Shown here: piece after piece, positions 3,962 to 46,314 of the stretch
How the letters are laid out: each line of letters opens with the position of its first letter
Position numbering within the stretch: position 1 is the first letter of the stretch
NCBI GenBank assembly: GCA_049521435.1
Contig: JBEKOU010000003.1
Location: 12,688 to 76,687, forward strand
Length of the DNA: 64,000 nucleotides
Source: Candidatus Dormibacteria bacterium
Lineage (GTDB): Bacteria > Chloroflexota > Dormibacteria > Aeolococcales > Aeolococcaceae
Direction of reading: 5' to 3'
Translations under genes and position numbers: made by a program
The notes under the pieces: model-generated
What the model was told of the DNA's origin: nothing
Database searches by the model: none
Seen by the model: the letters and a program-made list of their open reading frames with translations, nothing else

Positions 3962-4294
3962 GTGGCACCAGCGGCGGGACAGGGCGCATCGGGCAGCAGC
4001 GCCACCCTGTACGTCGGCAGCATCACCTCCTTCAACGACCTCTCGGACGCGTTCCAGCGGGCGCGCGGCCAGCTCGTCAACGCCGCTGCCGACCTCGGGG
4101 CGCACGGCTCGGCCGCCGGCGACCCCTTTGGCCACGCCTCGTCTGACACCGCCTACGGGGAGGTGCTCCGGGAGACGCTGACCGCCCTGGACAACCTCGG
4201 CGACGGCCTGCAGACGCTGGGACGGCGGGTCGAGGAAGCCGGAGCCGTGCTCGTGGCCGCCGAGCAGAGCATCGCGCGGTCGATGACGCCCTGA
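3962..4294 (+). CDS. small helical protein, possible WXG100-like partner or chaperone of the downstream toxin
   Basis: GTG start with GGAGGA 8 nt upstream and high GC3. 110 aa predicted as two helices around a central Gly/Pro turn (AAGDPFGHASS). Sits 19 nt upstream of the toxin ORF. Confidence 0.5.
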   Translation: MAPAAGQGASGSSATLYVGSITSFNDLSDAFQRARGQLVNAAADLGAHGSAAGDPFGHASSDTAYGEVLRETLTALDNLGDGLQTLGRRVEEAGAVLVAAEQSIARSMTP

Positions 4295-4313
4295 GAGGGA
4301 GGGGAATCCACTC

Positions 4314-5375
4314 ATGGGCCTTCCCGGCTGGATGCCCGGCCGGCCGGGCGGCGACCCGCAGCGGCTCACCCGGATGGCAGCTGCCTGGGAGGCCGTCGAC
4401 ACGGCCCTGCAGGCTGCCGAGCGGCAGCTCGCCCCACAGGCCGAGGACATCTCGCCCTGGTGGCGGGGGCAGGCGGCCGGCGCCTACACGGCGGCCTGGT
4501 ACGAGTACTCGGCCGGCCTGGCCCCGCTCCACCAGCAGCTCCAGGCGGTGGCGGGGGCCCTGCACGTGGCCTCCTTCGCGATCTGCAGCGCCCAGATGCA
4601 GTACGACCAGGCCGTCGAGGAGGTGATGGCCGGGGCCGCGGTCCTGACCGGCGCGGCCCTCTTCACCTTTGGCCTGTCGGAGGCCGGTGAGGCGGGGATC
4701 CTGGCGTCGGCCAGCGCCACCATCACGGAGCTTCTCGCAAGCCTGGCCGAGGCATTGGCGGAGATCGCCGCCTCCATCGGCGAGGCGCTCGCCGCCATGG
4801 CCCGGATCGCGGCCCAGCTGCTGCTGCCGCTTGGTGGAGGTGCGGGAACAGGTGGCGGGATGGCATTGGCCCTTGCCGGCGGCGGCACCCTGACCGTCAC
4901 CACCACCACGGCCGGCACCGGGCTGGCGGTCAGCGGGACGGTCGTTGCCGCCGGCGCCGTCGCGATCGACGCCCTGCTGGCCAAGGCGCTCGGCGGTGGC
5001 GGTGGGCATCTCAGCGCCGGGGGTGGGGGGAGCGGTAGCGAGGTCAACCCGCGAGATCAGGTCCCGCGCAGGTATGAGGCCGACACGAAATCCCTCAACC
5101 ACTTCGCGTCGAGGCACGGCAACGCCTTCGGCCTCCCGCAGACGACGCCGACCGTCGCCGGGCGTGCGGCCATCAGCGACTACATCCGGGACTGGATCAT
5201 GGACCCGGCCCACGAGCAGATCGTGGGCACCTTCCAGCGACAGCCCGCCATCATCTACCTTGACCCGGGCACGGGCCAAGTGATGTTCACGTATCCTGAC
5301 GGTCAGTTCTGGAGCGGGTTTCAGCTGGGCAAAACTCAGCTCAGCAGCCTGCTCACCACGGGAGGGTTCGCGTGA
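4314..5375 (+). CDS. polymorphic toxin: WXG100/T7SS-substrate-like N-domain, Gly/Ala-rich hydrophobic middle, colicin-D-like C-terminal domain (tentative)
   Basis: SD GGGAGGGG. N-terminus LTRMAAAWEAVDTALQAAERQL...SPWWRGQAAGAYTAAWYEY carries a W-x-G turn. A GGGGSGSE linker precedes NHFASRHGNAFGL...QFWSGFQLGKTQLSSLLTTGGFA. Confidence 0.7.
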   Translation: MGLPGWMPGRPGGDPQRLTRMAAAWEAVDTALQAAERQLAPQAEDISPWWRGQAAGAYTAAWYEYSAGLAPLHQQLQAVAGALHVASFAICSAQMQYDQAVEEVMAGAAVLTGAALFTFGLSEAGEAGILASASATITELLASLAEALAEIAASIGEALAAMARIAAQLLLPLGGGAGTGGGMALALAGGGTLTVTTTTAGTGLAVSGTVVAAGAVAIDALLAKALGGGGGHLSAGGGGSGSEVNPRDQVPRRYEADTKSLNHFASRHGNAFGLPQTTPTVAGRAAISDYIRDWIMDPAHEQIVGTFQRQPAIIYLDPGTGQVMFTYPDGQFWSGFQLGKTQLSSLLTTGGFA

Positions 5376-5782
5376 CTCCGGGGATCGGCGAGTTTCGTCA
5401 AACCATGCTCGACTTCGTCGATGGCCGTATCGCCGTCGGTGAATTCGACAGTGTCTACGTGAAGATGTGGGAGGAGCGGCGAGACCACGACTGGGCTGTC
5501 CTTGACGCGGAACATCCCCGGGCGCACCACCTCATACGTGAGAATCGCGCGGAATGGGACCGCATCAACGCCGAGCTGACCCACAAGGGCGAGTTGCTCC
5601 CCGACGACATCCAGACGGCGCTGGACCACATTTACACCGACCTCGATGTCCTCGATCAACGACCGTACGGGATCACGGTGGATCAGCTGCGCGAGGATTG
5701 CCGGCAGGCAATCACCCAGCTCGACGAACTGGGGCACGCGGCGCCCTCATCGGATGAGCGCACCGGAGATGGGGGTGCCTAG
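5372..5782 (+). CDS. cognate immunity protein (colicin D immunity / Colicin_immun-like, tentative)
   Basis: GTGA overlap with the toxin stop. LDFVDGRIAVGEFDSVYVKMWEERR resembles ImmD [23 protein letters not shown] as I recall it. Acidic, 136 aa. Confidence 0.6.
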   Translation: MTPGIGEFRQTMLDFVDGRIAVGEFDSVYVKMWEERRDHDWAVLDAEHPRAHHLIRENRAEWDRINAELTHKGELLPDDIQTALDHIYTDLDVLDQRPYGITVDQLREDCRQAITQLDELGHAAPSSDERTGDGGA

Positions 5783-5804
5783 CTACGCGTGGCACCCCGG
5801 CGCC

Positions 5805-5833
5805 TTGGGCCGATGCAAGCAATGTGCTAGCAT
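5805..5833 (+). promoter_or_regulatory. candidate sigma70-type promoter giving a leaderless vapBC mRNA, overlapped by TGCWAGCA boxes
   Basis: TTGGGC, 17-nt spacer, TAGCAT, 6 nt, then ATG at 5840. TGCAAGCA-ATG-TGCTAGCA (5813-5831) is an imperfect palindrome over the -10. Confidence 0.45.
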
Positions 5834-5839
5834 GGCCGA

Positions 5840-6061
5840 ATGAAGACCCTCTACCTGCGCAACGTCCCCGACGAGGTGGCGAGCCGGCTTCAGGGGATGG
5901 CGAACCGAGCCGGGCTGTCACTCACGGCGTTCGCCGTCCGTCAGCTGGCCGCCGTGGCGCGGCAGTCGGACAACGCCGCGCTGCTCGCTGAGTTGCCCGA
6001 CCTCGGCTTCTCGGCCGACCTCGTACTCAACGATCTCGATGCGGGCCGGGACGCACGGTGA
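5840..6061 (+). CDS. vapB: VapB/FitA-like ribbon-helix-helix antitoxin
   Basis: MKTLYLRNVPDEVASRLQGMANRAGLSLTAF is the classic RHH antitoxin N-terminus. 4-nt overlap with the PIN gene. Confidence 0.85.
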   Translation: MKTLYLRNVPDEVASRLQGMANRAGLSLTAFAVRQLAAVARQSDNAALLAELPDLGFSADLVLNDLDAGRDAR

Positions 6062-6441
6062 TCGTGGTGGATGCGTCAGCCGCAGTTCTGGCCCTGGTCA
6101 ACGCCGGCGACGCTCGCCGCCGTCTCCAGGTCGAGGAGCTCCATGCGCCGGGGCTGGTCGACTCCGAAGTGGTTCACGTCATCCGCCGTCAGGAGAGGGC
6201 CGGCATGCTCGGCTCGACGGAGGCCGCACGTGTGATCGACACGTGGCGCCGCCTCGGGATCCGCCGTCACTCGGTCCAAGGACAGATCGAACGGATATGG
6301 GAGCTGCGCCACAACCTCACGGGTTATGACGCGACGTACGTAGCCCTCGCGGAAGGTTTGGGATGCGAGCTCGTCACTGCAGACCGAAGGCTGACGGGCA
6401 CGCCGAAGCTCAGCTGTCCGGTGACCCTGGTCACGTCGTAG
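6058..6441 (+). CDS. vapC: PIN-domain ribonuclease toxin VapC
   Basis: MIVVDASAAV (first acidic residue), DSEV, TGYDATYVALAEGLGCELVTADRRL (PIN C-terminal acidic motif). Confidence 0.9.
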   Translation: MIVVDASAAVLALVNAGDARRRLQVEELHAPGLVDSEVVHVIRRQERAGMLGSTEAARVIDTWRRLGIRRHSVQGQIERIWELRHNLTGYDATYVALAEGLGCELVTADRRLTGTPKLSCPVTLVTS

Positions 6442-6590: not shown

Positions 6591-7499
6591 GTGGGCACCT
6601 CTCTCCCCTGCCCGTCTGGATCTTCGAGCCGGCCCTGTCTGGCTCGCTTGCGCCGATGGCTCGCGACCCTCACGCTGCTGGCCAGCCTGGCAGCCGGGTG
6701 TGGCACTGGGGCCCACGCAACCGCCGGCACGTCGACCGCCTCGCCGATCACCTCCAGCACCACGCGCGCGACCGGGGCGAACCCCAGCGCGACGGCGAGT
6801 GCGGGCGTGATTGCCACTTCCTACTGCGACGAACAGGACACCACGATCCCGGGAGCCGCGGCGTTTCTCTCTGATCAGGGGCCACGGCCGACCAACCTCA
6901 CGGCCGTCCAGGAGGCCTGGTTCGATATGGAGGCCACGATGGTTCCGGCGTGCTCTGAGATCGTGCCCGAACCACCGGCGGTCACCATGCAGAACCTGAC
7001 CAACGGTCAGCTGAGCAGCGCCGAGTTCCAGACCTGGGTGACCGAGGATGAGATGTGGTGGACCCTCGCCGAGTGGGCTGGCCAGCACGACCAACCCGAC
7101 TTTGTCACCGACTTCTTGTACGGGGGGAGTGGCAACACGTTTACCAGCTTCCTTCGCGCTGGAGGCAAGGTGGTGGACAGCCAGACCTGCGAGTACGCGT
7201 TGAAGTACGACGCGGTGGCGGTGACGGCTGAGCAGATGTCGGATCTCACCGTGAACCGTTTGACGAACGCCGGCGTCGTCTTCGTCGGAGCCGCTATCGG
7301 GCCCTGCACAAGTACATGGACGGCGTCGGACGGCACCGTCACGAACAAGGGCCTAGCTGCCGGGCAAGAGGGACGGGAGCTTGACGTTACGACGACACAC
7401 ACCAACGCCGCGCTCGGCCAGTATCTAGTTGTCAATGACAGTTGGGATCAAGGCGACGACGCGACTGCGGATTCGATCTTCAGTCTAGTTGGGATCTGA
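6591..7499 (+). CDS. hypothetical lipoprotein
   Basis: GTG start behind GGAAGGAAGGA. The N-terminus ends in LLASLAAGCG (lipobox-like), followed by a Ser/Thr/Ala-rich linker. No family recognised. Confidence 0.6.
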   Translation: MGTSLPCPSGSSSRPCLARLRRWLATLTLLASLAAGCGTGAHATAGTSTASPITSSTTRATGANPSATASAGVIATSYCDEQDTTIPGAAAFLSDQGPRPTNLTAVQEAWFDMEATMVPACSEIVPEPPAVTMQNLTNGQLSSAEFQTWVTEDEMWWTLAEWAGQHDQPDFVTDFLYGGSGNTFTSFLRAGGKVVDSQTCEYALKYDAVAVTAEQMSDLTVNRLTNAGVVFVGAAIGPCTSTWTASDGTVTNKGLAAGQEGRELDVTTTHTNAALGQYLVVNDSWDQGDDATADSIFSLVGI

Positions 7500-8847
7500 A
7501 GGATTGGGCCGCCGCAGGTTACTCGCGGTACTCTGTGCGCTGAGCGCGATTGTCGTGAGCACCGGGGCCACGGCGGTGCTCGCCTACTCCGGGAATGGGG
7601 TGACCGCCAACTGTCAGCCTGCCGCGGGACTGAGCCTGGCGATCGGAAAACCTCCACAGCCGGGGCCTGCTGGTAGCGTCGCCGCCGATGGCAGCCTCAC
7701 CCTCTACTGCCGGACCACGGGTACCAACTCGCGAGACGGGATCTATACCCCCGGGACCAACCCGCCGCCTCCCAAAGCCGGCACGCCCTGCAGCGTGAAC
7801 ATCGGCTACGAAGGCGCTCAGGTGCTTGGCCAATCGTTTCTGGAGTCCGAGTACCTGCCCGGCGCGGTGACGGTCTTCCCGTTCGCTCTTTGGACCGGGA
7901 CCATCAATGCCGACATCGTGCCTTCATCGGGCTCCTTCGGCGACCTCTGGGGGAGTGTGGCCGACACGGCACCGGCGGCACTCGGGGTCAATTGGGCAGC
8001 CGCCTCCCAGTACGGACCCGCCCCACCCAGCGCTCTACCCGACTCAGGGCTCGCCACGGGGGGGTTCATCATGTCTGGACTGGAGAACCAGACGCTCGTC
8101 GCCTCAGTGACGACCGAGCCCGGCGGCGATGGGGAATGGGAGAAGAGTTCCGGCGGCGAGTGGCTGTGCGACGGGCCGCGGCTCAGTCTCACCGTCCAGC
8201 CGGAGCCCGACGTGGCCACCCCGCCCTCCGAGACGCCACCAGTCGAAACCACCTGGGCAGTGCCGACCGTGCAGCAGGCAATGGCCGTGGCCGGTGTGAC
8301 GGCTGGACAGGTGCAGACCAGCGCTCCGGACAACTACGTCGTCTTCGCGCCCACGACGTTCTGGATCACCCCGCAGCCCCAGGGGCCTGACGTCCCCCCC
8401 GTGGTCACGAACGTCATCGGTCCCCCCGACGCCAACGGCGAATCCATCGTCTACAGCTACTACCTGGCCGTGGAGCCGTCCGACACGATCAACTGGACCT
8501 TCGGGGACGGCACGACCGGCACGTCCCAGGCGGAGAGCTCGGGACCGGGGGAAGCTGGGATCACCCACTACTACAAGCAGATCAGCGGTGAGGGGGCACT
8601 GCCAGCCGCCGGTTCGACCGTCTCGGCGGCCCAGGACGTGACCGTGACCGCCTTCGTGGGCTGGATTGACGGCACCAACACCGCCTATTACGAATGCGTC
8701 ACTCCCGACGGCGGGGTTGACGGCATCAACCACAACACCCAGGCCCAGGCGATAACCGCCTGCAGCATCACCTACCCCGACGCGCTCGTCGACGCCGCCC
8801 TCCCGGCCAAGCCCGTCTACCAGGTCCGGACCGTCCCGGTGGCGTGA
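7489..8847 (+). CDS. secreted protein with a C-terminal PKD-like module
   Basis: Signal-like RRRLLAVLCALSAIVVSTGATAVLAYS. INWTFGDGTTG...ITHYYK matches the PKD WxFGDG...HxY signature. Overlaps the upstream lipoprotein gene by 11 nt. Confidence 0.6.
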   Translation: MGSEGLGRRRLLAVLCALSAIVVSTGATAVLAYSGNGVTANCQPAAGLSLAIGKPPQPGPAGSVAADGSLTLYCRTTGTNSRDGIYTPGTNPPPPKAGTPCSVNIGYEGAQVLGQSFLESEYLPGAVTVFPFALWTGTINADIVPSSGSFGDLWGSVADTAPAALGVNWAAASQYGPAPPSALPDSGLATGGFIMSGLENQTLVASVTTEPGGDGEWEKSSGGEWLCDGPRLSLTVQPEPDVATPPSETPPVETTWAVPTVQQAMAVAGVTAGQVQTSAPDNYVVFAPTTFWITPQPQGPDVPPVVTNVIGPPDANGESIVYSYYLAVEPSDTINWTFGDGTTGTSQAESSGPGEAGITHYYKQISGEGALPAAGSTVSAAQDVTVTAFVGWIDGTNTAYYECVTPDGGVDGINHNTQAQAITACSITYPDALVDAALPAKPVYQVRTVPVA

Positions 8848-8848
8848 C

Positions 8849-9412
8849 GTGCTGGGGGGGCGACCGCGACAACCCCACCGCGGTGGGCAGGCCACTGTGG
8901 AGTTTGCTCTCGTCTTTGGCGTGTTTCTCCTGGCACTGATGGCGATCCTCGACACCTGGATCTGGACCATCGAGACCGATGCCGCGGATGCATCCGTCGA
9001 ACAGGGCATCGGGGTTGCGATGTCGGCCCAGGGCTCCGCAACCAGCCTCACTCCCGCGCTCACCGATGTGTACGCGAACGTCCTTCCGCTCCTGCAGCAA
9101 CCGATGCTCGGGACGACCGTGGAGAACTGGTACGCGTCCAACCTCGCCGCGCTGCGCGGCGAGATCGGACCGAACGCATGCCCGACCGCCGACCAGGTGG
9201 CCGACTACTTCAACGATCTCCACTCGGGCTATGACGGAGTCGGGCACGTCGTCGTCTGCGCCGCCGACGACGGCGATGGCCACGTCACGGTGGCGATCAC
9301 CGGCTATGCCCTCTCCATGGTGCCGCCCGGCTTCGGGCCCTTCAACTGGCGCGGTTGGGGCCTCCCGATCTCAGAGACGGCCTCCGTCAACGTGGGCACG
9401 TATTCGCCATGA
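8849..9412 (+). CDS. TadE-like pseudopilin
   Basis: GGQATVEFALVFGVFLLALMAIL is the TadE/TadG N-terminal motif. Starts 1 nt after the upstream stop. Confidence 0.7.
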   Translation: MLGGRPRQPHRGGQATVEFALVFGVFLLALMAILDTWIWTIETDAADASVEQGIGVAMSAQGSATSLTPALTDVYANVLPLLQQPMLGTTVENWYASNLAALRGEIGPNACPTADQVADYFNDLHSGYDGVGHVVVCAADDGDGHVTVAITGYALSMVPPGFGPFNWRGWGLPISETASVNVGTYSP

Positions 9413-9918
9413 GAACCCGGCCCAGTTGGCGCCGCGGCCAGCGAGCACAGGCCGCCCTCGAGATGGCCCTGGTGCTCCCCGTCATGATCGTCATCGTCTG
9501 TGGATTCGTGGGGATGATGCTCGAGCTCAGGGCGGAGAACGAATTCCAGACGGCGGTCGATCTCTCGGCTCAGGCAGCGCTGGTGCCTCCACTCGGAGAT
9601 CAGACCGCCAGCCAGGCCGATTCCGCCTATGCCTTCTTGCACACTCTCAACCCGAGCGGCAGTGAGAGCGGCTACCTGACCGTGACCACACCGATCACCT
9701 GCACAGGCCCCTACCTCGAGGGGGAGATCGACCTCAGCGCCAGGGGCATCCCGGCCCCCGTCACCTGCACCGCCCAGGCCACGCTCAACTTCTCCGCAAC
9801 CCCGATCAGCGTCTTCTGGTTCTGGTCGATCCAGCTCAGTGCCACAGCGGACGCGTATCCGCCCCAGTACCGGCAGTGCCAGACCACGTCGGGCTCGACC
9901 AGTCCCTTCCAATGCTGA
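9409..9918 (+). CDS. TadE-like pseudopilin (second copy)
   Basis: ATGA overlap with the previous gene. RGQRAQAALEMALVLPVMIVIVCGF. Confidence 0.7.
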   Translation: MRTRPSWRRGQRAQAALEMALVLPVMIVIVCGFVGMMLELRAENEFQTAVDLSAQAALVPPLGDQTASQADSAYAFLHTLNPSGSESGYLTVTTPITCTGPYLEGEIDLSARGIPAPVTCTAQATLNFSATPISVFWFWSIQLSATADAYPPQYRQCQTTSGSTSPFQC

Positions 9919-10355
9919 GTCGCCGCCAGAGCCGGATCCGAGAGCACGGCCAGATCCTGGTGATGTTCGCCTTCTCGATGCTCTTCCTCATCGTGGGCAT
10001 GATCGCCGTGGCCGTGGATCTCTCCCAGCTGTACGAGGCGCACGTGCGCGCACAGGACGCCGCGGAGCAGGCGGCGGCGGCCGGAGCGAGCCAGGTCGAC
10101 TACGTCGCCGCCGAGAGCAGCGTTGCCTCTCTCCTGCCGTCCTTTGCCTCGGTCTGCAGCGGTGCCGGCGACGCCTTCAGCGGCGTCGTGGGCTCGACGA
10201 CGTGCACGAGCCCAGAGGGAACCGATGACGTGGTCGCGTCCGTCACGGTCCGAGCCTCGGTGGCTTTGCCACTCCCGTTCTTGGGCGGCACGTTCACCAT
10301 CGCAACGACGTCCACCGCCGCGCCCGTGGTGGGCGGACTGGCGCCGGTGGGATAG
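9912..10355 (+). CDS. TadG-like / pilus-assembly N-terminal domain protein
   Basis: ATG at 9912 overlaps the previous stop. EHGQILVMFAFSMLFLIVGMIAVAVDLSQLY resembles the Tad N-terminal domain of TadG-type proteins. Confidence 0.6.
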   Translation: MLSRRQSRIREHGQILVMFAFSMLFLIVGMIAVAVDLSQLYEAHVRAQDAAEQAAAAGASQVDYVAAESSVASLLPSFASVCSGAGDAFSGVVGSTTCTSPEGTDDVVASVTVRASVALPLPFLGGTFTIATTSTAAPVVGGLAPVG

Positions 10356-10473: not shown

Positions 10474-10911
10474 TCAGTTGGGCGGGCTGGGTGGAGTCGC
10501 ACGTGCGATCACGGCCCGGTGCGAGGCCGGCACCAGCAATCCCAGAAGGCACGCCGCGGGCACCAGAGTGATGAAGACAGACCCCGGTAGCGTCGCGGAA
10601 AGAGCGCTCGAGAGCGACGACCATCCATGGGTCGGTACTAAGGCCAGCGCTCCGCTCGGGCCCCATATCGCCTCGGCGAGGCTGACACACCCCAGCAGCA
10701 GCAGCGCTGCCTGCAGCGCCACCACCACCCAGTACGCGGAAGGGCGGCGGGACGCAGCGACGGCTAGGCCGATCCAGAGCGCCATCGCCACAATCGCGAC
10801 GACGACGAGCAGGATGAGCTGGGTCCAACTCAGGGTCGAACCGCCCCAAACACTGTTCCAGAAGAGCACGACCGCCACAGTGGGCGGCCCCAAGAGGCCC
10901 TCCAGCACCAT
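10474..10911 (-). CDS. small integral membrane protein (about 4 TM), unknown function
   Basis: 145-aa ORF with good codon bias and hydrophobic segments (VAVVLFW, LILLVVVAIVAMALWIGLAVAA, YWVVVALQAALLLLGCV, FITLVPAACLLGLLV). Confidence 0.5.
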   Translation of the reverse strand: MVLEGLLGPPTVAVVLFWNSVWGGSTLSWTQLILLVVVAIVAMALWIGLAVAASRRPSAYWVVVALQAALLLLGCVSLAEAIWGPSGALALVPTHGWSSLSSALSATLPGSVFITLVPAACLLGLLVPASHRAVIARATPPSPPN

Positions 10912-11026
10912 GACGGAGCACGCGACCGTGAGGGGCCATGGCCGATCGGTCGCCAGTAGCCGGCCCGCACCGGGCAGCGGCCTCGGGCAGCCGGCACCTC
11001 ACCCTCGTCCATGGGCGGTCTCTCGG

Positions 11027-11242
11027 TCACGGGCGCCTTTCCTGCTGGAGCTGGGCAGCTTCAGGCGGAGACCAGGAGCTGACAGGACGCGGCGTCAGGA
11101 GGGCGTGCGCGCTGCGGCGCCAGCGATCGAGGTCGCACAGGTTCGGGTAGCGCCGAGCCAAGGGTGCGGTGGAGCATGCAGCGGGCGCCACAAGACCCAC
11201 CGCCACTCCTGTCTTGAGCCAGCTGTGGGCGTCGCTCGGCAT
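11027..11242 (-). CDS. possible 71-aa ORF coupled (TGATG) to the upstream membrane-protein gene
   Basis: The ATG shares its A with the TGA of the 127-aa ORF. GC3 is high. Sequence MPSDAHSWLKTGVAVGLVAPAAC.... No homology recognised, so this is weak. Confidence 0.25.
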   Translation of the reverse strand: MPSDAHSWLKTGVAVGLVAPAACSTAPLARRYPNLCDLDRWRRSAHALLTPRPVSSWSPPEAAQLQQERRP

Positions 11243-11625
11243 CACCCGTTCAAGAGTCCACAAGAAACGCCATTCCACAACAGGACGTCAACAGCTGCGA
11301 GGATCGACGCAGCCCCGAATATCGCAATCGAGAGCAGAGCGGACGTCGTCAATCCAGTCCTGCGCAGAAGCTGGGTACCTTCCAGCCCTCGCTCCGTGCT
11401 TCTCGCCCACGCCACCACCCAGTACATACCCACCGCGGCGGCCACGATCACACCGATCGAGCACCAGACGGAACCGGGAGAAGGGGTGGAGCAGTCATAG
11501 CTCCTCTTCTCCCAGGGTAGGGCAAAGGTTATCGCCGACCCCAGAACGAGCACGGCCACGTCCACGGCGAGCGCGTGCGGACCATAGCGAAGCCAACGTA
11601 CCCAGCCGCGCAGGACCTGCCGCAT
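11242..11625 (-). CDS. small integral membrane protein, unknown function
   Basis: ATG at 11625, 15 nt after the decarboxylase stop. 127 aa with ALAVDVAVLVLGSAITFAL, WCSIGVIVAAAVGMYWVVAWA and SALLSIAIFGAASILAAVDVLLW. It is the tail of track ORF 11242..12531. Confidence 0.5.
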   Translation of the reverse strand: MRQVLRGWVRWLRYGPHALAVDVAVLVLGSAITFALPWEKRSYDCSTPSPGSVWCSIGVIVAAAVGMYWVVAWARSTERGLEGTQLLRRTGLTTSALLSIAIFGAASILAAVDVLLWNGVSCGLLNG

Positions 11626-11639
11626 CCTGGTACCGACCC

Positions 11640-12998
11640 TCAGCCCATCAAGTGGACCAGCCGGTCGTGGAGCACCTCGACGAAGTCCTCGTGCTCGGGC
11701 TTCATGAGCACGCTGCGCAGGATGCGCACGTCCCTGCCCCCGGTCTCGATGTCCGGATGGCGGCGGTGGAGGCTCGCGGCGGTGACCCGCGCCACACTGA
11801 CGTAGACGGGAGCCTCGTCCGCCATCGCGCGCTCGAAGAGGCTCTGGCTGGCGGCGTCGACGTCCGCCCCCGTCATCCCCTCCCTCCAGGGGAAGTAGCT
11901 GACGATGTCCAGCTCGGGCCCCTGGTAGAGGCGGAGGTGCTCCGACCCCCCGATCAGGCGCGCGAAGCTCACCGCGGCCCGGCGGCAGGCTCCGAGGATC
12001 GCCCCCAGCCCGTCCGGGGTGAGCGGGAAGAGCTGGAGGGTCGTCCAGAGCGCCGCGGCGGCGGCTCCGGCCCGGGAGCACTCCAGCGAGATCTCGCCGA
12101 GGTGCAGCTCCGAGGAGGTGAAGTAGGTGTAGGGGGAGTCGTGGACGTAGAAGCGGCCCACCGACGGATCGCGGAAGAGCACGCAGCCGCAGCCGTAGGG
12201 CTGGAGGCCGTGCTTGTGCGGATCGACCACGACCGAATCGCACTCCGCGATGGCCCGGAAGGGTGCGGCGGGGATGCCGCCCGACCCGTCCCAGCCGAGG
12301 ATCGTGTAGAAGCCGCCGTAGGCGGCGTCGACATGAAGCCGAACCCCGTACCGCTCGCGCATCGAGAGCGCCTCGTCGATGGCATCGACCGCCCCCAACG
12401 CGGTGGTCCCGGCGGTGAGCACCACGGTGCCGATGGTGTCGGTCTTCAGCAGGTGCTCCAGGGCGCCGAGATCCATCCGCCCGCCCGCATCGGCGGGCAC
12501 CTTGACCCCGCGGACGCCGAGCAACCGGCACATCCGCTCGTGGGTGTAGTGGGCCTCCTCACTGAAGGCGACGGCGGTCCCCGGCCTCAGCTCGCGGGCG
12601 ACGAAGAGGGCCTCCAGGTTGGCGATGGTCCCGCTCGAGGTGAGGTGGCCGAGGAAGCCGGCTGGGTAGTGGAACATCGCGGCGATGGCCGCCACCGCCT
12701 CCCGCTCCAGCGCGGCGGTCGCCGGCCCCCCGTCGAGGGCATGATTGTTGGGATTGATGAGCATCGCCATCAGGTAGGCGGCAGCCGCCGCCGGATGGGG
12801 CGGCTTGAGCATCTGGCCGGCGTAGCTCGGGTGGAAGAAGGGGTAGTTGTCCCCCAGCCGCCGGCCCAGCTCCTCGAGAACCATGTGCGCGCGCTCCGAG
12901 CTGACGGACACGGAGGAGTGGGGGGTGACAGCGAGCCAGCCGGCCTCCCAGCGCCGCACCGCCTCGACGGCCTGCAGGCTGGCGGCGTCGAGGTCCAT
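11640..12998 (-). CDS. PLP-dependent (group II-like) amino-acid decarboxylase
   Basis: HLTSSGTIANLEALFVAR, LHVDAAYGGF and VVDPHKHGLQPYGCG (PLP-lysine motif) in a 452-aa ORF. Confidence 0.85.
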   Translation of the reverse strand: MDLDAASLQAVEAVRRWEAGWLAVTPHSSVSVSSERAHMVLEELGRRLGDNYPFFHPSYAGQMLKPPHPAAAAAYLMAMLINPNNHALDGGPATAALEREAVAAIAAMFHYPAGFLGHLTSSGTIANLEALFVARELRPGTAVAFSEEAHYTHERMCRLLGVRGVKVPADAGGRMDLGALEHLLKTDTIGTVVLTAGTTALGAVDAIDEALSMRERYGVRLHVDAAYGGFYTILGWDGSGGIPAAPFRAIAECDSVVVDPHKHGLQPYGCGCVLFRDPSVGRFYVHDSPYTYFTSSELHLGEISLECSRAGAAAAALWTTLQLFPLTPDGLGAILGACRRAAVSFARLIGGSEHLRLYQGPELDIVSYFPWREGMTGADVDAASQSLFERAMADEAPVYVSVARVTAASLHRRHPDIETGGRDVRILRSVLMKPEHEDFVEVLHDRLVHLMG

Positions 12999-13068
12999 GG
13001 GAAGGGAAGTCTACCGGGGCCGGCCGGGATCACCCGCCGAGGGCGGCCTTCCGCGCTCGCGTCAGGGT

Positions 13069-13097
13069 GGCCGGTCGGCGCCAGGCGCCGACCGGCC
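13069..13097 (-). terminator. very strong GC hairpin between the leader ORF and the decarboxylase (attenuator/terminator candidate)
   Basis: GGCCGGTCGGCGCC-A-GGCGCCGACCGGCC, with 14-nt complementary arms. It lies 45 nt after the leader ORF stop and 70 nt before the decarboxylase ATG. No U-tract. Confidence 0.4.
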
Positions 13098-13141
13098 GTC
13101 TCACTCCCCCCACCACCATTAGGAGGAGCGAGGAGGTGTGG

Positions 13142-13279
13142 CTACCGAACGCGGGTGACCAGCTCGGGGTCGTCCGCGGAGGGTTCCATGCACGGATGGC
13201 CGGCGCTCGGCCGACCGGGGAAGTGGACGGTGCCGGAGACGTCTGAGTCGGCACCGTGGAGGACAGGAGCGTCGTGCAT
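13142..13279 (-). CDS. 45-aa leader/short peptide ORF with a near-perfect Shine-Dalgarno
   Basis: AAAGGAGGAtgtATG, the strongest SD I saw in the window. MHDAPVLHGADSDVSGTVHFPGRPSAGHPCMEPSADDPELVTRVR, GC3 about 80%. The upstream extension to 13420 (track ORF) has poor GC3. Confidence 0.35.
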   Translation of the reverse strand: MHDAPVLHGADSDVSGTVHFPGRPSAGHPCMEPSADDPELVTRVR

Positions 13280-13584
13280 ACATCCTCCTTTTCCCGCCGA
13301 TGCGGTTGGCAGATGGATCGCTGTCCCGCTTCGCTTTTCGCGGCCGGGGGGCACCTTGGCCGCACGCATCTTGGGGACAGCGGCATCGTCGATTACGCGC
13401 GAATCCCAGCCACGTGTCAATCACCCCCACGGGTGATTTCGAAACCAGCTCGCACGCGCGATGTCCCACGCGAGGTGCCACATGGTCATGTCTGGCGCTC
13501 TTCGCGATGCCGGGATGAGGCGGACCTCAGACGGCGCCGAGCCGCCACGGGCCAGACGGCGGGCGGAGCCGGGAGACGGACCGC

Positions 13585-13612
13585 TTGACCAGATTCGGCA
13601 ACATGCTATAGT
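13585..13612 (+). promoter_or_regulatory. candidate promoter of the padR-ABC operon
   Basis: TTGACC, 16 nt, TATAGT, ending 12 nt before the ATG at 13625, in a locally AT-richer patch. ATGC-6 nt-GCAT dyad over the -10. Confidence 0.4.
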
Positions 13613-13624
13613 GCATTACGCAAT

Positions 13625-14296
13625 ATGTCGACACGCATCAACAGGCCGCCCCAGGGGACCATCGCCCTGACCGCGCTCGCCCTGCTCACCGAGCAACCCC
13701 TCCACCCGTACGAGATGCAGCGGCTGATGCACGACCGGCGCAAGGACTACGCCGAGGGCAAGATGCGGGCCCTCTACCGGGCCATCGAGGAGCTCGAGGC
13801 GGCCGGCTGGATCGAGCCGGCGGAGACGACCCGCGAGGGACGTCGCCCCGAGCGGACCGTGTACAGGATCACCCCGGAGGGGCACGAGGCGCTCGAGGAT
13901 TGGCTCCAGGACGTCCTGGAGCGGCCGGCCCGCGAACACCTGGTGTTCACCGCCGGTGTCGGCCTCCTGGCCTACCTCCCCCTGGACCGCGCCCTGGATG
14001 CTCTCCAGCACCGGGCTGTGGAGCTCCGCGCCGAGCTGGCCGCCCGCGCCGAGGCGTCCGCCGCCCTCACCCAGGAGATGCACCTCCCGCGGGTCGTCCT
14101 GCTCGAGGACGAGCACGAGCGGGCTCTGCGGGAAGCCGAGCTGCGCTGGGTGCTGTCGCTGGTGGAGGACATGCGCGCGGGCCGCCTCACCTGGGACGAG
14201 GAGAGCCTGCGCGCCCAGTTTGAGCTCATGCACGATCATGAGATGGCGCGACGACGACACCATCGCGGGCCGGTCCCCGAGCCCGAGCAGTCATAG
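13625..14296 (+). CDS. PadR family transcriptional regulator (with C-terminal extension)
   Basis: LLTEQPLHPYEMQRLM...MRALYRAIEELEAAGWIE...RTVYRITPEGHEAL is the PadR winged-helix signature. Confidence 0.9.
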   Translation: MSTRINRPPQGTIALTALALLTEQPLHPYEMQRLMHDRRKDYAEGKMRALYRAIEELEAAGWIEPAETTREGRRPERTVYRITPEGHEALEDWLQDVLERPAREHLVFTAGVGLLAYLPLDRALDALQHRAVELRAELAARAEASAALTQEMHLPRVVLLEDEHERALREAELRWVLSLVEDMRAGRLTWDEESLRAQFELMHDHEMARRRHHRGPVPEPEQS

Positions 14297-29385: not shown

Positions 29386-29771
29386 TGGAGCTCCTTGGCG
29401 AGCTGGTCGGCGTCGAGCACCAGGATCATCCGCTGCTCATCGGCCCGGATCACCCCGGAGACCACCGGGTTCTCCTGGCCGGAGGGCGGGGTGGTGATCG
29501 CGCTCTCCTCCACCCGGAGGATGCCGATGGCGCTCTCGACCACCAGGCCAAAGCGCTCGCCGCCGCCGTCCAGGACGAGGACATGCCCGGCGCCGTGGCC
29601 GAGCACGGAGAGCACGGTGAGGATCTCGTCCCCACGCCGGAGCACGCCGGCGATCCCGTCCTTGGGCACGGGCAGGGGGGTGATCCCGTAGGGCAGCCGC
29701 ACCTCCTGGACCCGCTCGATGGGGACGGCCCACTCGCCGTCCATCGTCTCGAAGTGGACCAGTGTTCTCAT
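29382..29771 (-). CDS. cheW: CheW-like coupling protein (second copy)
   Basis: 129 aa from the ATG at 29771 (C-terminal part of track ORF 29382..30659). WAVPIERVQEV...GIAGVLRRGDEILTVLSV...FGLVVESAIGILRV. 4-nt overlaps on both sides. Confidence 0.8.
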   Translation of the reverse strand: MRTLVHFETMDGEWAVPIERVQEVRLPYGITPLPVPKDGIAGVLRRGDEILTVLSVLGHGAGHVLVLDGGGERFGLVVESAIGILRVEESAITTPPSGQENPVVSGVIRADEQRMILVLDADQLAKELQ

Positions 29772-31156
29772 GGCTCGGGTGTCCTCGTCAGCCGGTGGTC
29801 GATCATGCGGACCAGCTCCTCGATCTGGTAGCCCTCGAGGGCTACCTCGGCGGCCGCGGAGCTGCGGCCGAGAGCGGCCCTGGCGACGCTGAAGGCCCGG
29901 CGGGCCTGGCGCGATTCGCCCTGGAGCTCGAAGGCGAGGCCCAGCTGGAACTGGGCGATGGCATGGTCGGGGTCGAGGTACACGACCTTCCGGAGCGCGG
30001 CCACCGCGGCGGCCGCGTCGCCCGCCTGCAGACCGGCTTCGCCCGCAGCGAGGAGGGCCGCGATCGAGGGGTCGCCGCCGCACTCGTTCGTCACGGCCAC
30101 CGGGAGTGGCGGCTGGGACGGCGCGGAGGCCACGTGCGGCGTGGAGACCGCGGAGGGAGCGTGGAGAGAGCCCAGCTTGGCCCCCGCGGGCACGGAGGGC
30201 CGGGAGCCTCCCCGGGCCTCGGCGTAGGTCGCGGCGGCCCGGACGCCGTTGCCGCGCCCGGCGTCCGGAGCCGGCACGGCTGAGACGTGAGACTTGGTCC
30301 GCTTGGAGGGGCCGCGCGAATGGCTCGGATAGTCGGGGGCGGGGAGGATCTGGGCGGCCGGGTCCGCCGGCACCGAGTCGGGCTGCCGGTACGCGAAGGC
30401 GGTGCCGACCCGCACCAGGTGAAAGCGCTCGGTGACCTGCCAGAGCGACTCCGAGTAGCCGAGGAAGACCCATCCGCGCGGGTCCATGGTGGTGCGGATC
30501 CGCTCCAAGGCGGCCAGCACGTCGGGGCGGTCGAAGTAGATGAGCACGTTGCGGCAGAAGACGACCTCCGCGCCCCGCGCCGGCGCCGGGGCCGGGTCGC
30601 GGATCAGGTTGTGCCGGAAGACGGTCACCTTCGACCGTAGCTCGGGGACGATCTCCCACTGGTCGCCGGCCCGGCGGAGGTACCGGCTGCGCTCCTTCTC
30701 GTCAAGCCCGGTGAGCTGCCGCTCCTCGTAACGCCCGCTGGCGGCCTGGCGGAGGGCACGGGAGGAGATGTCAGAGGCGACCACCTGCCACCTCGCGATG
30801 CCGCTGTCGGCCAGAATCATGGCGATGGTGTAGGGCTCCTGTCCCCAGGCACAGCCGGCGCTCCAGACGGTGAGCGGGGAGTGGAGGGTGGGCACGACGT
30901 CGCGCCGGAACGCGGCGACCTGGGCGGGGTCGCGGAAGAAGGAGGTCTCCTGGACGGTGAGCTCGTCGAGGCAGGCCTGGAGCGCCGGCCCCTCGGCGGC
31001 GATCTCCTCGACGATCGTGGAGTCCGGCACACCCCGCTGCTCCGCGGTGTGGTGGAGCCAGTAGTCGAGGCGATACCGCTGGGCGGGGTCCAGGCGCAGG
31101 CCGACGCTCCGTTCCACGAACTCACTGGCGGTATCGAGCAGGATCTCGCTGGTCAT
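29768..31156 (-). CDS. cheR: CheR-type methyltransferase with a C-terminal TPR region (WspC-like)
   Basis: ETSFFRDP, VWSAGCAWGQEPYTIAMIL and VVFCRNVLIYFD. The C-terminus AVAALRKVVYLDPDHAIAQFQLGLAFELQG is TPR-like. Confidence 0.9.
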   Translation of the reverse strand: MTSEILLDTASEFVERSVGLRLDPAQRYRLDYWLHHTAEQRGVPDSTIVEEIAAEGPALQACLDELTVQETSFFRDPAQVAAFRRDVVPTLHSPLTVWSAGCAWGQEPYTIAMILADSGIARWQVVASDISSRALRQAASGRYEERQLTGLDEKERSRYLRRAGDQWEIVPELRSKVTVFRHNLIRDPAPAPARGAEVVFCRNVLIYFDRPDVLAALERIRTTMDPRGWVFLGYSESLWQVTERFHLVRVGTAFAYRQPDSVPADPAAQILPAPDYPSHSRGPSKRTKSHVSAVPAPDAGRGNGVRAAATYAEARGGSRPSVPAGAKLGSLHAPSAVSTPHVASAPSQPPLPVAVTNECGGDPSIAALLAAGEAGLQAGDAAAAVAALRKVVYLDPDHAIAQFQLGLAFELQGESRQARRAFSVARAALGRSSAAAEVALEGYQIEELVRMIDHRLTRTPEP

Positions 31157-32208
31157 GCGGGCACCGCTACGCCGGCAGCGCGGAGCACCGCGGCGGCGAT
31201 CTCGGAGAGGGGCAGCACCCAGGTGACACCGCCATTGTCATGGGCCGCCTTGGGCATCCCGTAGACGGCCGAGGACTCCTGATCCTGGGCGATGGTCGTC
31301 CCGCCGATCCGCCGGAGGGCAAGCAGCCCCGAGGCCCCGTCGTCCCCCATTCCGGTGAGGATCACGCCGATCCCGCGCTCGTCGCCGCAGTCGGCCATGC
31401 TGTGGAAGAGGACGTCGGCGGATGGGCGGTGGAGGGTCACTGGCTCGTCGAGAAGCGACAGCCGGTGGCCGCGCCGCACGATGGCGTGCAGCCCCGGCGG
31501 TGCCACGAGCACCATCCCGGGCCGGAGCGGGGCGCCGTCGACGGCGAGCTCGACCGGGAGCGCGGACTCGCGCCGCATCCAGCCGAGGAAGCCGTCCACG
31601 AAGCCGGACTGCAGGTGCTGGACGACGATGACGGGGCGCTGGAGCCCGCCCAGGCCGGCAAGAACCCGTGCCAGAGCGGGGGGGCCACCGGTGGAGGCCG
31701 CCAGTCCGACCACGCCATCGGAGCTGCGCCTCCCACCGGCGGCGGCGGGGCGGAGCTCCCGGACCGGCGGGCGCCGCAGCCGCTCGCGGCGGCGCTGCGA
31801 GAGGTGTCCCAGGGCACGAAGGCGCTTGCGCAGCTCGGCTCCGACGGCGACGTCCCACCTGGCCGGGTACGTCATGACCTCCACCGCGCCGGCGACGACC
31901 GCCGCCATCGAGGCGTCTCGCCGGTGGTCGGAGGGGACCATGAGCAGGATGGGCACGGGGGCGAGGGCGAGGATCTCCCGGACGAGGCCGGCGGCCTGGT
32001 CACTGTTGGAAAGCCCGGACATGTCGAGGCCCACGAGGTCGGGGTGATCCCGGTCGATGGAGGCGACGGCCTGGGCGGGGAGGACCTGAGCCACCACGCT
32101 GGCGTCACGGTCGGCCTCGACGGCCCGTGCGAGCTGTGTGGCCCAGGGACCCGTCTGCCCGCTGACGATCAGCACCCGCAGGATGTCCTTCGCCGGCACG
32201 GCGCTCAC
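31153..32208 (-). CDS. cheB: CheB-type methylesterase with a degenerate receiver domain
   Basis: GLAASTGGPPAL, QHLQSGF, HRPSADVLF and LTGMGDDG catalytic-domain motifs. The GTG at 32208 overlaps the upstream small ORF by GTGA. The receiver lacks the acidic pair and the conserved Lys. Confidence 0.85.
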   Translation of the reverse strand: MSAVPAKDILRVLIVSGQTGPWATQLARAVEADRDASVVAQVLPAQAVASIDRDHPDLVGLDMSGLSNSDQAAGLVREILALAPVPILLMVPSDHRRDASMAAVVAGAVEVMTYPARWDVAVGAELRKRLRALGHLSQRRRERLRRPPVRELRPAAAGGRRSSDGVVGLAASTGGPPALARVLAGLGGLQRPVIVVQHLQSGFVDGFLGWMRRESALPVELAVDGAPLRPGMVLVAPPGLHAIVRRGHRLSLLDEPVTLHRPSADVLFHSMADCGDERGIGVILTGMGDDGASGLLALRRIGGTTIAQDQESSAVYGMPKAAHDNGGVTWVLPLSEIAAAVLRAAGVAVPA

Positions 32209-32381
32209 CTCACCGGCCCTTCGACGGCCGAAAGACCGGTCGCTACGGTGCCGCGCCCAGAGGCCCGCTTCAGCGCCCGCCGCATGGCGGCCTGCTCCAG
32301 CTCGCGCTCCCTGGCGGCCCGGCGCACGGCGCGGCTGATCGCGGCCCGCCTCAGGGCGCGGTCCTCGGATGGCTGGGTCAC
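32205..32381 (-). CDS. unannotated 58-aa Arg/Ala-rich ORF coupled to both cheA and cheB
   Basis: GTGA overlap with the cheA stop and GTGA overlap with the cheB start. VTQPSEDRALRRAAISRAVRRAARERELEQAAMRRALKRASGRGTVATGLSAVEGPVR. GC3 is about 90%. It falls below the 60-aa cut-off of the track. Confidence 0.4.
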   Translation of the reverse strand: MTQPSEDRALRRAAISRAVRRAARERELEQAAMRRALKRASGRGTVATGLSAVEGPVR

Positions 32382-41171: not shown

Positions 41172-41630
41172 TCAGCGCGGAGGCGGCAGCCCGGCCAGCT
41201 CGTCGAGGTGGGACGTCCAGTGGAAGGTCCGGTCGAGCATCGCCCGGCGGCCGGTGGTCAGCGCAGCCTCCACCGCCGCAGGGCTGAGGGCGGCGATCCG
41301 CTCGACGACCTCACCGGCGGCCTCGATCGCCTGCGCCACCGCGGCCGCCGGAGGGAGCGCCAGCCAGAGGGGCAGCCCGGCCGCGTTGACCAGGTCCATG
41401 TGCGAGTCGGGGAGGCTCTCGATGACGCCGTCCCGCACGTACAGGTCCCAGCGGGCGAGCACCAGGCGATCCCAGAAGGCGAGATGGGCAAAGACGGCGG
41501 ACGGGGTCCACCCACCAGTCAGCTCGGAGGGCAGCTCGCCGGCGAGCAGCCGGGAGCCGAGGCCGCGCAGTCGCGCCAGCTCCCCCGCGTTGCGCGCGAG
41601 ATGCGCACGCTCAGCCTCAGACATCGCCAC
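41172..41630 (-). CDS. DinB-like four-helix-bundle family protein (tentative)
   Basis: 152 aa with WTPSAVFAHLAFWD and a C-terminal FHWTSHLDEL, His-containing helices reminiscent of DinB_2. Weak call. Confidence 0.45.
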   Translation of the reverse strand: MAMSEAERAHLARNAGELARLRGLGSRLLAGELPSELTGGWTPSAVFAHLAFWDRLVLARWDLYVRDGVIESLPDSHMDLVNAAGLPLWLALPPAAAVAQAIEAAGEVVERIAALSPAAVEAALTTGRRAMLDRTFHWTSHLDELAGLPPPR

Positions 41631-41710
41631 GGATGGTGCCAGATGGAGCGGCTCGGCGGAGCAGGGTCGCGACCATCGGGGTAGGGGTGAATGTGTCGAT
41701 TCTCAAAACA

Positions 41711-41736
41711 TTTCGTCACGAATCTTTCGTCACGAA
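41711..41736. promoter_or_regulatory. two tandem copies of TTTCGTCACGAA (each containing the dyad TTCGT-C-ACGAA) upstream of the glucosidase gene
   Basis: Exact 12-mers at 41711-41722 and 41725-41736 in an AT-richer patch of the 178-nt divergent intergenic region. Confidence 0.45.
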
Positions 41737-41808
41737 AAGAATTTCGGAGAGACCGTCCCCCGGTGCGGGCCGTCGGACCGTCCCACCCGGACTGAGACAA
41801 TCGAGGCG

Positions 41809-44415: not shown

Positions 44416-44434
44416 GATTGCCCGCTCGAAGGGA

Positions 44435-44474
44435 CCGTCGTGTGCTCCAGGGGGACCCGCCGTGTGCTCCAGGG
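44435..44474. repeat. 18-nt direct repeat CCGYCGTGTGCTCCAGGG x2 (22-nt period)
   Basis: 44435-44452 and 44457-44474 differ at one position. They lie just after the glucosidase stop. Confidence 0.4.
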
Positions 44475-44477
44475 TGG

Positions 44478-44499
44478 TTAAGGACACTTGCGTCCTTAA
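44478..44499. promoter_or_regulatory. AT-rich palindrome TTAAGGAC-6 nt-GTCCTTAA upstream of the EamA gene
   Basis: 8-bp arms read directly. Could be an operator or the glucosidase terminator. Confidence 0.3.
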
Positions 44500-44562
44500 G
44501 GCCACTGTGAGATGCACCCGACGCTCTGAGCACCGAGTGACGGGAACGGTGCTTTCGGCTCG

Positions 44563-45549: not shown

Positions 45550-45572
45550 GCGCGGCCGCCGGGGAAGTTTGG

Positions 45573-46184
45573 TCAGAAGGGAAGAGGGCGGTCCCTGAGA
45601 AGGGGGCCGTCCGCGTCGAGCGCTGCCGCGAGCGCCTCGACCTCCAGATGGGAGAGGGCCAGGGGCGCCCTCGGCGCCATCGGGTCCGGGTCGCCGTCCC
45701 GGAGCGGCCGCTGCCACCAGCCGACGTCGTGCCAGGCCCCGAGCTTCCAGCCCGCGGCTCGGAACAGGGCCACTTGAATGTACCCGCTCGCCTCGTGGAG
45801 CCGGACGCTCGCGGGATTGGGGAGCGCGATCCCGGCCATCGCCTGGCGGTAACCCTGGGCACCCAGGAGGCGCAGCAGCGACCGGTAGAGGGCCCGCCCG
45901 ACACCACGACCGCGCGCCGCCTCGGCCACGTACACGCTCGTCTCCACCGACCAGGCGTAGGCGGCCCGGGCCGCGAACGGCCCGGCGTAGGCGTAGCCCA
46001 GGATCCCGCGCTCGGAGTCGGCGACAAGCCAGGGGTGCGTCTCCTGGTGGGCAGCGATGCGCCGCGCCACCTCGGCTGACGAGGGCGGCGCGGTCTCGAA
46101 GGAGATGGCCGTGGACTCGACGACCGGCGCGTAGATGGCGTGGACGGCTGGGCCGTCCGCCTCGAGGGCCAGCCGGATCCGCAT
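45573..46184 (-). CDS. GNAT N-acetyltransferase (phosphinothricin/methionine-sulfoximine acetyltransferase-like)
   Basis: RIRLALEADGPAVHAIYAPVVESTAISFE, SVYVAEAARGRGVGRALYRSLL and NPASVRLHEASGY. Confidence 0.85.
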   Translation of the reverse strand: MRIRLALEADGPAVHAIYAPVVESTAISFETAPPSSAEVARRIAAHQETHPWLVADSERGILGYAYAGPFAARAAYAWSVETSVYVAEAARGRGVGRALYRSLLRLLGAQGYRQAMAGIALPNPASVRLHEASGYIQVALFRAAGWKLGAWHDVGWWQRPLRDGDPDPMAPRAPLALSHLEVEALAAALDADGPLLRDRPLPF

Positions 46185-46229
46185 CGGAAGATGCTAGGCC
46201 GTCAGCGGTCTGTCGGGCCGCGGTGATAC

Positions 46230-46312: not shown

Positions 46313-46314
46313 CG

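Follow-up and report, generated by a model that had tools for sequence, protein, structure and literature searches.

A probable WXG100-type polymorphic toxin-immunity operon with a colicin D-like tip in Candidatus Dormibacterota

In Mycobacterium tuberculosis, the toxin CpnT is encoded by the orphan operon EsxF-EsxE-CpnT-IFT, which lies away from the ESX loci and in which small Esx-like protein(s) are encoded upstream of the toxin. CpnT combines an N-terminal secretion/membrane domain with a C-terminal toxic domain, a NAD+ glycohydrolase acting against host cells; it has two Esx partners, and its immunity factor is encoded downstream. The same layout is found in the three-gene operon described here, which occupies positions 3962 to 5782 of the plus strand of a 64-kb stretch of DNA (hereafter the window) and encodes a small helper, a toxin with a colicin D-like C-terminal tip and an immunity protein. 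Unlike CpnT, the toxin of the window carries an RNase-type tip, presumably aimed at bacteria, and has a single partner. We consider it probable that this operon is a WXG100 (type VII secretion-style) polymorphic toxin-immunity system of Candidatus Dormibacterota.

The reference for the tip is colicin D, encoded with its immunity protein ImmD on the E. coli plasmid pColD (PDB 1V74, 1TFO, 1TFK and 5ZNM), the Tox-ColD/ImmD pair of Zhang et al. (2012). In that work, WXG N-termini, Tox-ColD tips and ImmD immunity proteins are all catalogued for polymorphic toxins, and the export routes listed for Tox-ColD do not include a secretion system of type VII (T7SS). Similar to colicin D/ImmD, the window toxin ends in a homologous C-terminal domain with the same predicted alpha+beta BECR fold and a putative catalytic His and Ser, and an ImmD-like immunity gene lies directly downstream. 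However, the carrier consists of a WXG100-like hairpin and a hydrophobic middle instead of receptor-binding and translocation domains, Ala, Phe, Gln and Phe stand in for D614, K608, K680 and W679 of colicin D, the immunity protein reaches 136 aa and includes an insertion of ~40 residues (ImmD has 87 aa), and the host is a Dormibacterota soil bacterium. Pyocins SD1-SD3 also carry a colicin D-type cytotoxic domain on another carrier, together with ImmD-like immunity; these share 51-55% identity with colicin D and use TonB-dependent import in Pseudomonas (PMC4964976), whereas the tip of the window has diverged much further and is borne by a WXG carrier.

The LXG toxins of the T7SSb (TelA-D, EsaD and YxiD) share with the window operon the gene order helper(s), toxin and immunity, as well as a toxin design in which a variable middle links an N-terminal helical targeting domain to a polymorphic tip at the C-terminus (PMC10765036, PMC5555719). 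C-terminal targeting motifs and export arms are a published concept (PMC3935865, PMC10765036): in the Lap helpers of LXG toxins, a C-terminal FxxxD export arm stands beside the LxG of the toxin to form a bipartite T7SS signal (PMC10765036). Like LapD1 (FxxxD), the window helper is devoid of WxG and ends in a hydrophobic-xxx-acidic export arm. The differences from LXG systems lie in the N-terminal domain, which fits WXG100 and WXG100_2 models and gives no match to Pfam LXG at E <= 1, in the presence of one helper rather than two or three, in the hydrophobic, Gly/Ala-rich nature of the middle, and in a host that belongs neither to the Bacillota nor to the Actinomycetota and in which EssC was not identified in the ~85 kb examined.

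A first-pass annotation had placed three linked plus-strand open reading frames (ORFs) between housekeeping genes and a vapBC pair, and all three were confirmed at the positions it gave, with the peptides that it quoted. ORF1 (3962..4294, 110 aa, GTG start) is the gene of the WXG100-like (Lap/Esx-like) helper, ORF2 (4314..5375, 353 aa) encodes the polymorphic toxin, and ORF3 (5372..5782, 136 aa, GTG start) is the immunity gene, whose start overlaps the TGA stop codon of the toxin gene as GTGA. Shine-Dalgarno-like purine-rich motifs (GGAGG/GAGGGAGGGG/GGGAGGG) precede each of the three starts, including that of ORF1, for which a strong Shine-Dalgarno sequence had been annotated. The GC content at third codon positions (GC3) is 0.89-0.94 in ORF1 and ORF2, which is coding-type for a Dormibacterota genome at ~70% GC, and it is lower in ORF3 (0.765). 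Because all three ORFs have conserved homologues, they are not chance; the same three genes were also obtained from independent metagenome gene calls on at least six contigs. The operon is flanked upstream by genes for phosphoenolpyruvate (PEP) carboxylase and dienelactone hydrolase, and downstream by those for a ribbon-helix-helix (RHH) antitoxin and a PIN toxin (vapBC). A scan for sigma-70 promoters and terminators gave nothing useful on the plus strand, and a lone terminator-like hairpin, which lies within the toxin gene on the minus strand, was rejected as being at chance level.

The identical toxin protein was found on many peatland metagenome contigs, while in the species-representative genome set, relatives were confined to three Candidatus Dormibacterota metagenome-assembled genomes from bog, fen and palsa sites. 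The identical 136-aa protein is annotated elsewhere as a Candidatus Dormibacteria hypothetical protein. Judged by these sequence matches, the host genome is one of Candidatus Dormibacterota (candidate phylum AD3) and does not belong to an actinobacterium.

The strongest evidence for a polymorphic toxin system is comparative and comes from the exchange of tips between sister genomes. The 13 toxin homologues have their first ~230 residues in common and then continue into either a ColD-type tip (4, including that of the window) or an unrelated tip (9). Three loci with the alternative tip, L007, L009 and L010, are syntenic with the window and encode a helper that is ~80% identical; in all three, a different ORF of ~100 aa, overlapping the toxin end, stands in for the 136-aa gene. 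The latter is retained wherever the tip is of the ColD type, with 64-80% identity (64% in locus L008). In blastn comparisons of the window with L007, L009 and L010, homology of 83-87% extends to positions 4996-4999 (codon ~228, in the poly-Gly linker) and restarts at 5813 or ~6525. The swapped segment has a GC content of 0.63-0.65, whereas the toxin gene has 0.75 in its 5′ part, so that breakpoints and GC together delimit a compositionally distinct, swappable tip-plus-immunity cassette on the plus strand (4997..5812). As traced by these breakpoints, the tip and the immunity gene are exchanged between strains as one cassette at the poly-glycine junction. The family hence combines a conserved N-terminal trafficking region with C-terminal tips that are exchanged together with their cognate immunity genes, as is the rule for polymorphic toxins.

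The alternative tip (GAPREIDGYTQHGL..GRDGG.GV..VVTAWA) is encoded by the last ~90 codons of L007 565-1566, L009 10001-11002 and L010 10001-11005, and had no family match in Pfam, NCBIfam or PDB sequences. It is accompanied by its own conserved downstream ORF of ~98-105 aa, which overlaps the toxin end, and the two make up an unclassified toxin-immunity pair. A conserved His followed by beta-strands in the alternative tip hints at another small RNase-like fold. L007 has a further ORF of 162 aa (2038-2526) that matched no family and separates the alternative immunity candidate from vapB; it may represent an orphan immunity gene or what is left of another cassette.

The C-terminus of the window toxin had been likened to colicin D at first pass, a proposal that is borne out by profile searches and modelling. 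Residues 265-343 (5106..5342) match the Pfam family Colicin_D (PF11429) with 28.8 bits, where the gathering score is 25, and cover profile positions 6-81 of 84. A profile built from the four ColD-type tips of the clade retrieves colicin D (1TFK, 1TFO and 1V74) from the PDB with E = 3e-5, while the corresponding single-sequence search is marginal (E = 0.12). With the tip alone as query, a word-indexed homology search gave no match. An exhaustive phmmer search found 167 relatives in proteins of 51-1,804 aa, and almost all of the matches listed carry the domain at their very C-terminal end. In a scan of 88 proteins, made up of the window toxin and 87 longer phmmer relatives, 86 were recognized as Pfam Colicin_D; the N-termini include RHS, PT-HINT, PAAR-like, WXG100_2 (7), T7SS_signal (2) and PPE (1).

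The AlphaFold2 (AF2) model of the tip has the order H-H-E-E-E-E-H, with two helices, a four-stranded antiparallel sheet and a final helix. Colicin D tRNase chains occupy the first five places among its Foldseek matches (E = 1e-4 to 1e-3), with a TM-score by target of 0.65-0.68 for the three isolated tRNase-domain chains, and BECR-fold CdiA-CT toxins rank next. In the structural alignment, the tip and colicin D share ~22% identity. The Pfam match, the profile, the model and the C-terminal placement in its relatives thus identify the tip as a genuine Colicin_D-family polymorphic-toxin end, homologous to the colicin D tRNase and predicted to adopt the same fold.

The active site of the tip was mapped via the colicin D alignment, with the roles of colicin D residues taken from Zhang et al. 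and PMC4964976 and frequencies counted among 141 cluster representatives. Two putative catalytic residues are kept: colicin D H611 corresponds to His268 (5115-5117), a His in 136 of the 141, and S677 to Ser334 (5313-5315), where 110 of the 141 have S or T. K610 is replaced by Arg267 (Arg in 12/141) and W679 by Phe336 (Phe in 21/141). Three further replacements weigh against a colicin D-like enzyme, namely those of D614 by Ala271 (Ala in 21/141), K608 by Phe264 (Phe in 12/141) and K680 by Gln337 (Gln in 19/141). Where the signature of the family is [KH]K, Hxx[ED] and [TS]xxK, the window tip reads H263-F264, H268-G-N-A271 and S334-G-F-Q337.

It is therefore conceivable, although we hold it for the less probable case, that a Colicin_D-fold tip has altered or lost its chemistry, and acts on an RNA target other than tRNA-Arg, as a weakened enzyme or as a non-catalytic RNA-binding toxin. 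K608 and D614 are among the residues (K607, K608, H611, D614 and S677) that Zhang et al. list as essential in the colicin D domain, and the equivalents of D614 and S677 vary even within the four-member ColD-type clade. However, His268 and Ser334 are retained, and the recurrence of Ala, Gln and Phe at the positions of D614, K680 and W679 marks them as tolerated natural variants. Similarly, pyocins SD1-SD3 have only four of the six critical colicin D residues and still kill (PMC4964976). Furthermore, a dedicated immunity gene that co-varies with the tip implies that the tip is toxic. Because variants at the signature positions occur within the bona fide family, they lower the confidence in the same substrate or efficiency and leave the homology standing. 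From the retained residues, RNase activity of the tip is likely, while a specificity for tRNA-Arg finds no support in these results and is unproven.

The immunity gene had been aligned with ImmD at first pass; the relationship stood, although the protein is not a plain ImmD. ORF3 matches Pfam Colicin_immun (PF09204) with 23.0 bits (cut-off 22) over residues 11-46 only, corresponding to profile positions 8-43 of 88; in its three homologues, this stretch reaches 24.0, 19.7 and 18.5 bits. A single-sequence PDB search with ORF3 was empty. The AF2 model of ORF3 consists of six helices with a mean predicted local distance difference test score (pLDDT) of 84.9, and its top two PDB matches are ImmD (1tfk_B and 1v74_B; probability 0.97-0.98, TM-score by target 0.64-0.67), with generic helical bundles ranking close behind. 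In addition, hhalign aligned ORF3 with a protein of 54 bits for Colicin_immun, from locus L013, with E = 4e-5 and a probability of 70% over 82 columns. This alignment covers ORF3 residues 5-43 and 84-122 and leaves an insertion of ~40 residues between them (aa ~44-83), which accounts for both the partial Pfam match and the larger size of the protein. These lines of evidence are individually weak and convergent. Taken with the co-variation of gene and tip, they indicate that ORF3 is a divergent, helical member of the ImmD family (Colicin_immun type) with an insertion.

Locus L013 belongs to an unrelated organism and has the same three-gene design, in which a WXG-ColD toxin is accompanied by a strong Colicin_immun gene. 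The immunity protein of this locus (10671-11945, 424 aa) shows an unusual architecture, with a full Colicin_immun domain (54 bits) fused to an NHL/SGL beta-propeller.

At the other end of the toxin, the WXG100-like hairpin that the first-pass annotation had noticed is recovered at the level of the family. The WXG100 and WXG100_2 models are matched by 12 of the 14 members of the toxin family (best E = 1.7e-6 and 3e-8), and a profile of the N-terminal domain finds ESAT-6-like/EsxB/CFP-10 structures as its best PDB matches (E = 6e-4). In the window toxin, the WXG100-type helical hairpin spans residues 14-122 (4353..4679) and its WRG (residues 50-52, 4461-4469), which is invariant in the toxin family, aligns with the WxG of the EsxB/ESAT-6-like structures. 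On these profiles, the N-terminus appears to be an ESAT-6/CFP-10-like hairpin. No C-terminal targeting motif of the type YxxxD/E or HxxxD/ExxhxxxH was found on the toxin itself.

The start of the toxin is ambiguous (4314-4373), as the homologues P0002, P0003 and P0018 begin at a Met equivalent to residue 21. The 20-residue N-terminal extension, MGLPGWMPGRPGGDPQRL, is conserved in nine relatives and lies behind a strong ribosome-binding motif. It contains neither a hydrophobic signal core nor a twin-arginine motif, and export of the toxin by Sec or Tat was rejected on this ground.

The small upstream helper gives weaker signals of the same kind. A profile of the helper family finds ESAT-6 (3fav_B/1wa8_B) in the PDB with E = 0.015, which is weak, and designed armadillo repeats, the top PDB matches of this profile, were discarded as a repeat-summing artefact of ~5-9 bits per stretch. 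The helper lacks WxG and has an invariant DPFGH loop. Its extreme C-terminus, LVAAEQSIARSM, fits the pattern HxxxD/ExxhxxxH and resembles an LxxxE export arm; the motif is found at the same position in six of six Dormibacterota orthologues, one of which is only 31% identical. By analogy, this C-terminal motif may mirror the export arm of the Lap helpers. In close loci, the helper is 61-81% identical beside either type of tip, and 31-81% over all five orthologues. Hence the small helical partner proposed at first pass finds WXG100-like signals in its favour, and these signals are weak.

The Gly/Ala-rich hydrophobic middle and the GGGGSGSE linker of the first-pass annotation are both present. 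The middle (residues ~104-232, 4623..5009) is rich in Gly, Ala, Ser and Thr, carries few charges, and contains transmembrane-like segments at ~104-122 and ~200-228 around an Ala/Glu amphipathic helix. Both segments are marginal, with Kyte-Doolittle (KD) peaks of 1.7-2.0. Conservation across the family is highest in the middle, where invariant columns cluster and the motifs GLSExGE and DALLAK never vary, and its end is marked by the poly-Gly recombination junction. The distant relative P0018 still has this middle, which unrelated WXG-ColD toxins lack. The middle may serve membrane association or translocation.

Several results nevertheless weigh against a WXG100-type system with a colicin D/ImmD pair. 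Taken singly, the window toxin falls below the cut-offs of WXG100 (24.1 bits, cut-off 27.3), WXG100_2 (21.4 bits, cut-off 27) and TIGR03930 (23.1 bits, cut-off 44.85), and so does the helper for Pfam WXG100_2 (17.7 bits, E = 0.0037). The C-terminal motif of the helper arises in 22% of shuffles of the single sequence. The tip model, made from a four-sequence alignment, is of medium confidence (pLDDT 70.8). A profile of the ORF3 clade did not find ImmD among PDB sequences, and the matches between the ORF3 model and ImmD are non-significant (E = 0.4), with a root-mean-square deviation of 6.7 A. The export route adds to these points: no gene for EccC/EssC or another T7SS component was found in the 64-kb window or in ~10 kb on either side (~85 kb). 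Published accounts of T7SSs concern Actinomycetota and Bacillota, Chloroflexota are credited with only a few WXG100 proteins, and literature searches on T7SS in Dormibacterota and Chloroflexota brought up nothing specific.

The lack of T7SS machinery in the window had already been noted from the sequence, and is confirmed by ORF composition and by the ten largest genes, which are unrelated to secretion; no ORF longer than 1,100 aa has coding-type GC3. The genes of T7SS substrates are often distant from those of the machinery. Hence missing local machinery is not evidence of absence, and export by a T7SS is suggested by the features of the substrate, namely the WRG hairpin and the helper arm. 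A minus-strand ORF of 1,789 aa (41716-47085) was rejected as an antisense high-GC artefact over plus-strand genes with proper codon GC, among which is a GH63/MGH1-like glycoside hydrolase gene (41254-44415, plus strand).

The same toxin-immunity pair could also be delivered without a canonical T7SS, which we regard as unlikely. In this case, the middle would insert in the membrane and anchor or translocate the tip, or a divergent, undescribed Dormibacterota machine, possibly linked to the always-adjacent TadE/Tad-like cluster, would recognize the WXG hairpin. The empty ~85 kb and the silence of the literature on T7SS in Dormibacterota would be explained in this way, as would a hydrophobic middle that is both lineage-specific and the best-conserved part of the toxin. 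In addition, the operon is followed by lipoprotein-like, 450-aa and TadE/Tad-like genes, and this holds for the distant locus L012 as well. However, synteny extends over the whole region (PEP carboxylase, Nramp, acyl-CoA dehydrogenase), and the Tad-like genes may thus be neighbours without a functional tie. The hydrophobic segments are no more than marginal, and the combination of WxG with a helper export arm specifically fits T7SS targeting; the local lack of machinery means little for substrates that are often encoded afar. The more specific proposal that the middle of the Dormibacterota WXG toxins is a self-contained membrane-insertion/translocation module, with export by a divergent or different machine and not by the canonical EccC/EssC, is slightly more doubtful still. 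If true, this would represent a new delivery route for polymorphic toxins.

The block in question (6591-10355) encodes a lipoprotein-like protein of 302 aa, a secreted-looking protein of 452 aa with a weak PKD match and three small TadE/Tad-like pseudopilin-type proteins, and its conservation behind the toxin operon extends to all relatives, even to the distant L012. Elsewhere in the window, chemotaxis-type genes on the minus strand (29768-34672) encode a CheR methyltransferase with TPR repeats and a CheA-like Hpt-HATPase-CheW-receiver hybrid kinase. Genes of the GT87 family, similar to mycobacterial-type membrane mannosyltransferases, are present at 58441-59730 (minus strand) and at 13014-14126 of locus L014, and several GT2 genes lie beyond the right end of the window. 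The GT87 and GT2 genes may bear on the type of envelope of the phylum and hence on which secretion systems are plausible.

Immediately downstream of the toxin operon, the vapBC pair consists of overlapping genes for a FitA-like RHH antitoxin (5840-6061) and a PIN toxin (6058-6441). The window and L007 have the pair, L009, L010 and L012 lack it, and L008 carries it upstream of the helper gene. Since two of these loci (L009 and L010) are without the pair and L008 has it in another place, vapBC is an indel independent of the toxin operon. A never-exported toxin-antitoxin or phage-defence module, in a small defence/addiction islet beside vapBC, would account for this variably present neighbour, for the lower GC of the cassette and for the lack of secretion machinery nearby, but is very improbable given the independence of vapBC, a conserved N-terminal WXG delivery module of ~230 aa and a helper that are both foreign to toxin-antitoxin systems, a C-terminal tip swapped with its immunity gene, which is a hallmark of secreted polymorphic toxins, and tip relatives that are carried by RHS, PT-HINT, PAAR-like and PPE proteins.

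Under the preferred reading of a WXG100-type system exported in the manner of a T7SS substrate, the 110-aa helper and the WXG hairpin of the toxin would assemble into a four-helix pre-secretion complex. The WxG of the toxin and the C-terminal LxxxE export arm of the helper would then form a bipartite signal, to be recognized by an EccC/EssC-type ATPase encoded elsewhere in the genome. The hydrophobic, Gly/Ala-rich middle may assist the tip in reaching or crossing a membrane. In the cytoplasm of a competitor, the tip would cut RNA, most likely in the anticodon loop of a tRNA, by means of His268 and Ser334, while in the producer the immunity protein would plug the active site of the tip.

WXG100_2, T7SS_signal and PPE carriers of this tip type are already present in public data, as seen in the architecture scan. 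The locus, although well supported, is a rather ordinary toxin system of known type and leaves the current understanding of polymorphic toxins unchanged. What is new is modest: the host phylum, the lineage-specific hydrophobic middle, the insertion in ImmD and the minority variants in the active site. The locus nonetheless offers a clean natural case of exchange of a tip-plus-immunity cassette at a poly-glycine junction, and a Colicin_D variant with unusual active-site neighbours, paired with an ImmD variant with a large insertion, could inform the rules of specificity in this toxin-immunity family. For Candidatus Dormibacterota, an abundant uncultured phylum of peat and soil, the operon extends to this lineage both the WXG100-type polymorphic toxins and the colicin D/ImmD pair. 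It raises the question of whether a T7SS-like exporter exists in these bacteria, and implies that Dormibacterota would take part in interbacterial antagonism.

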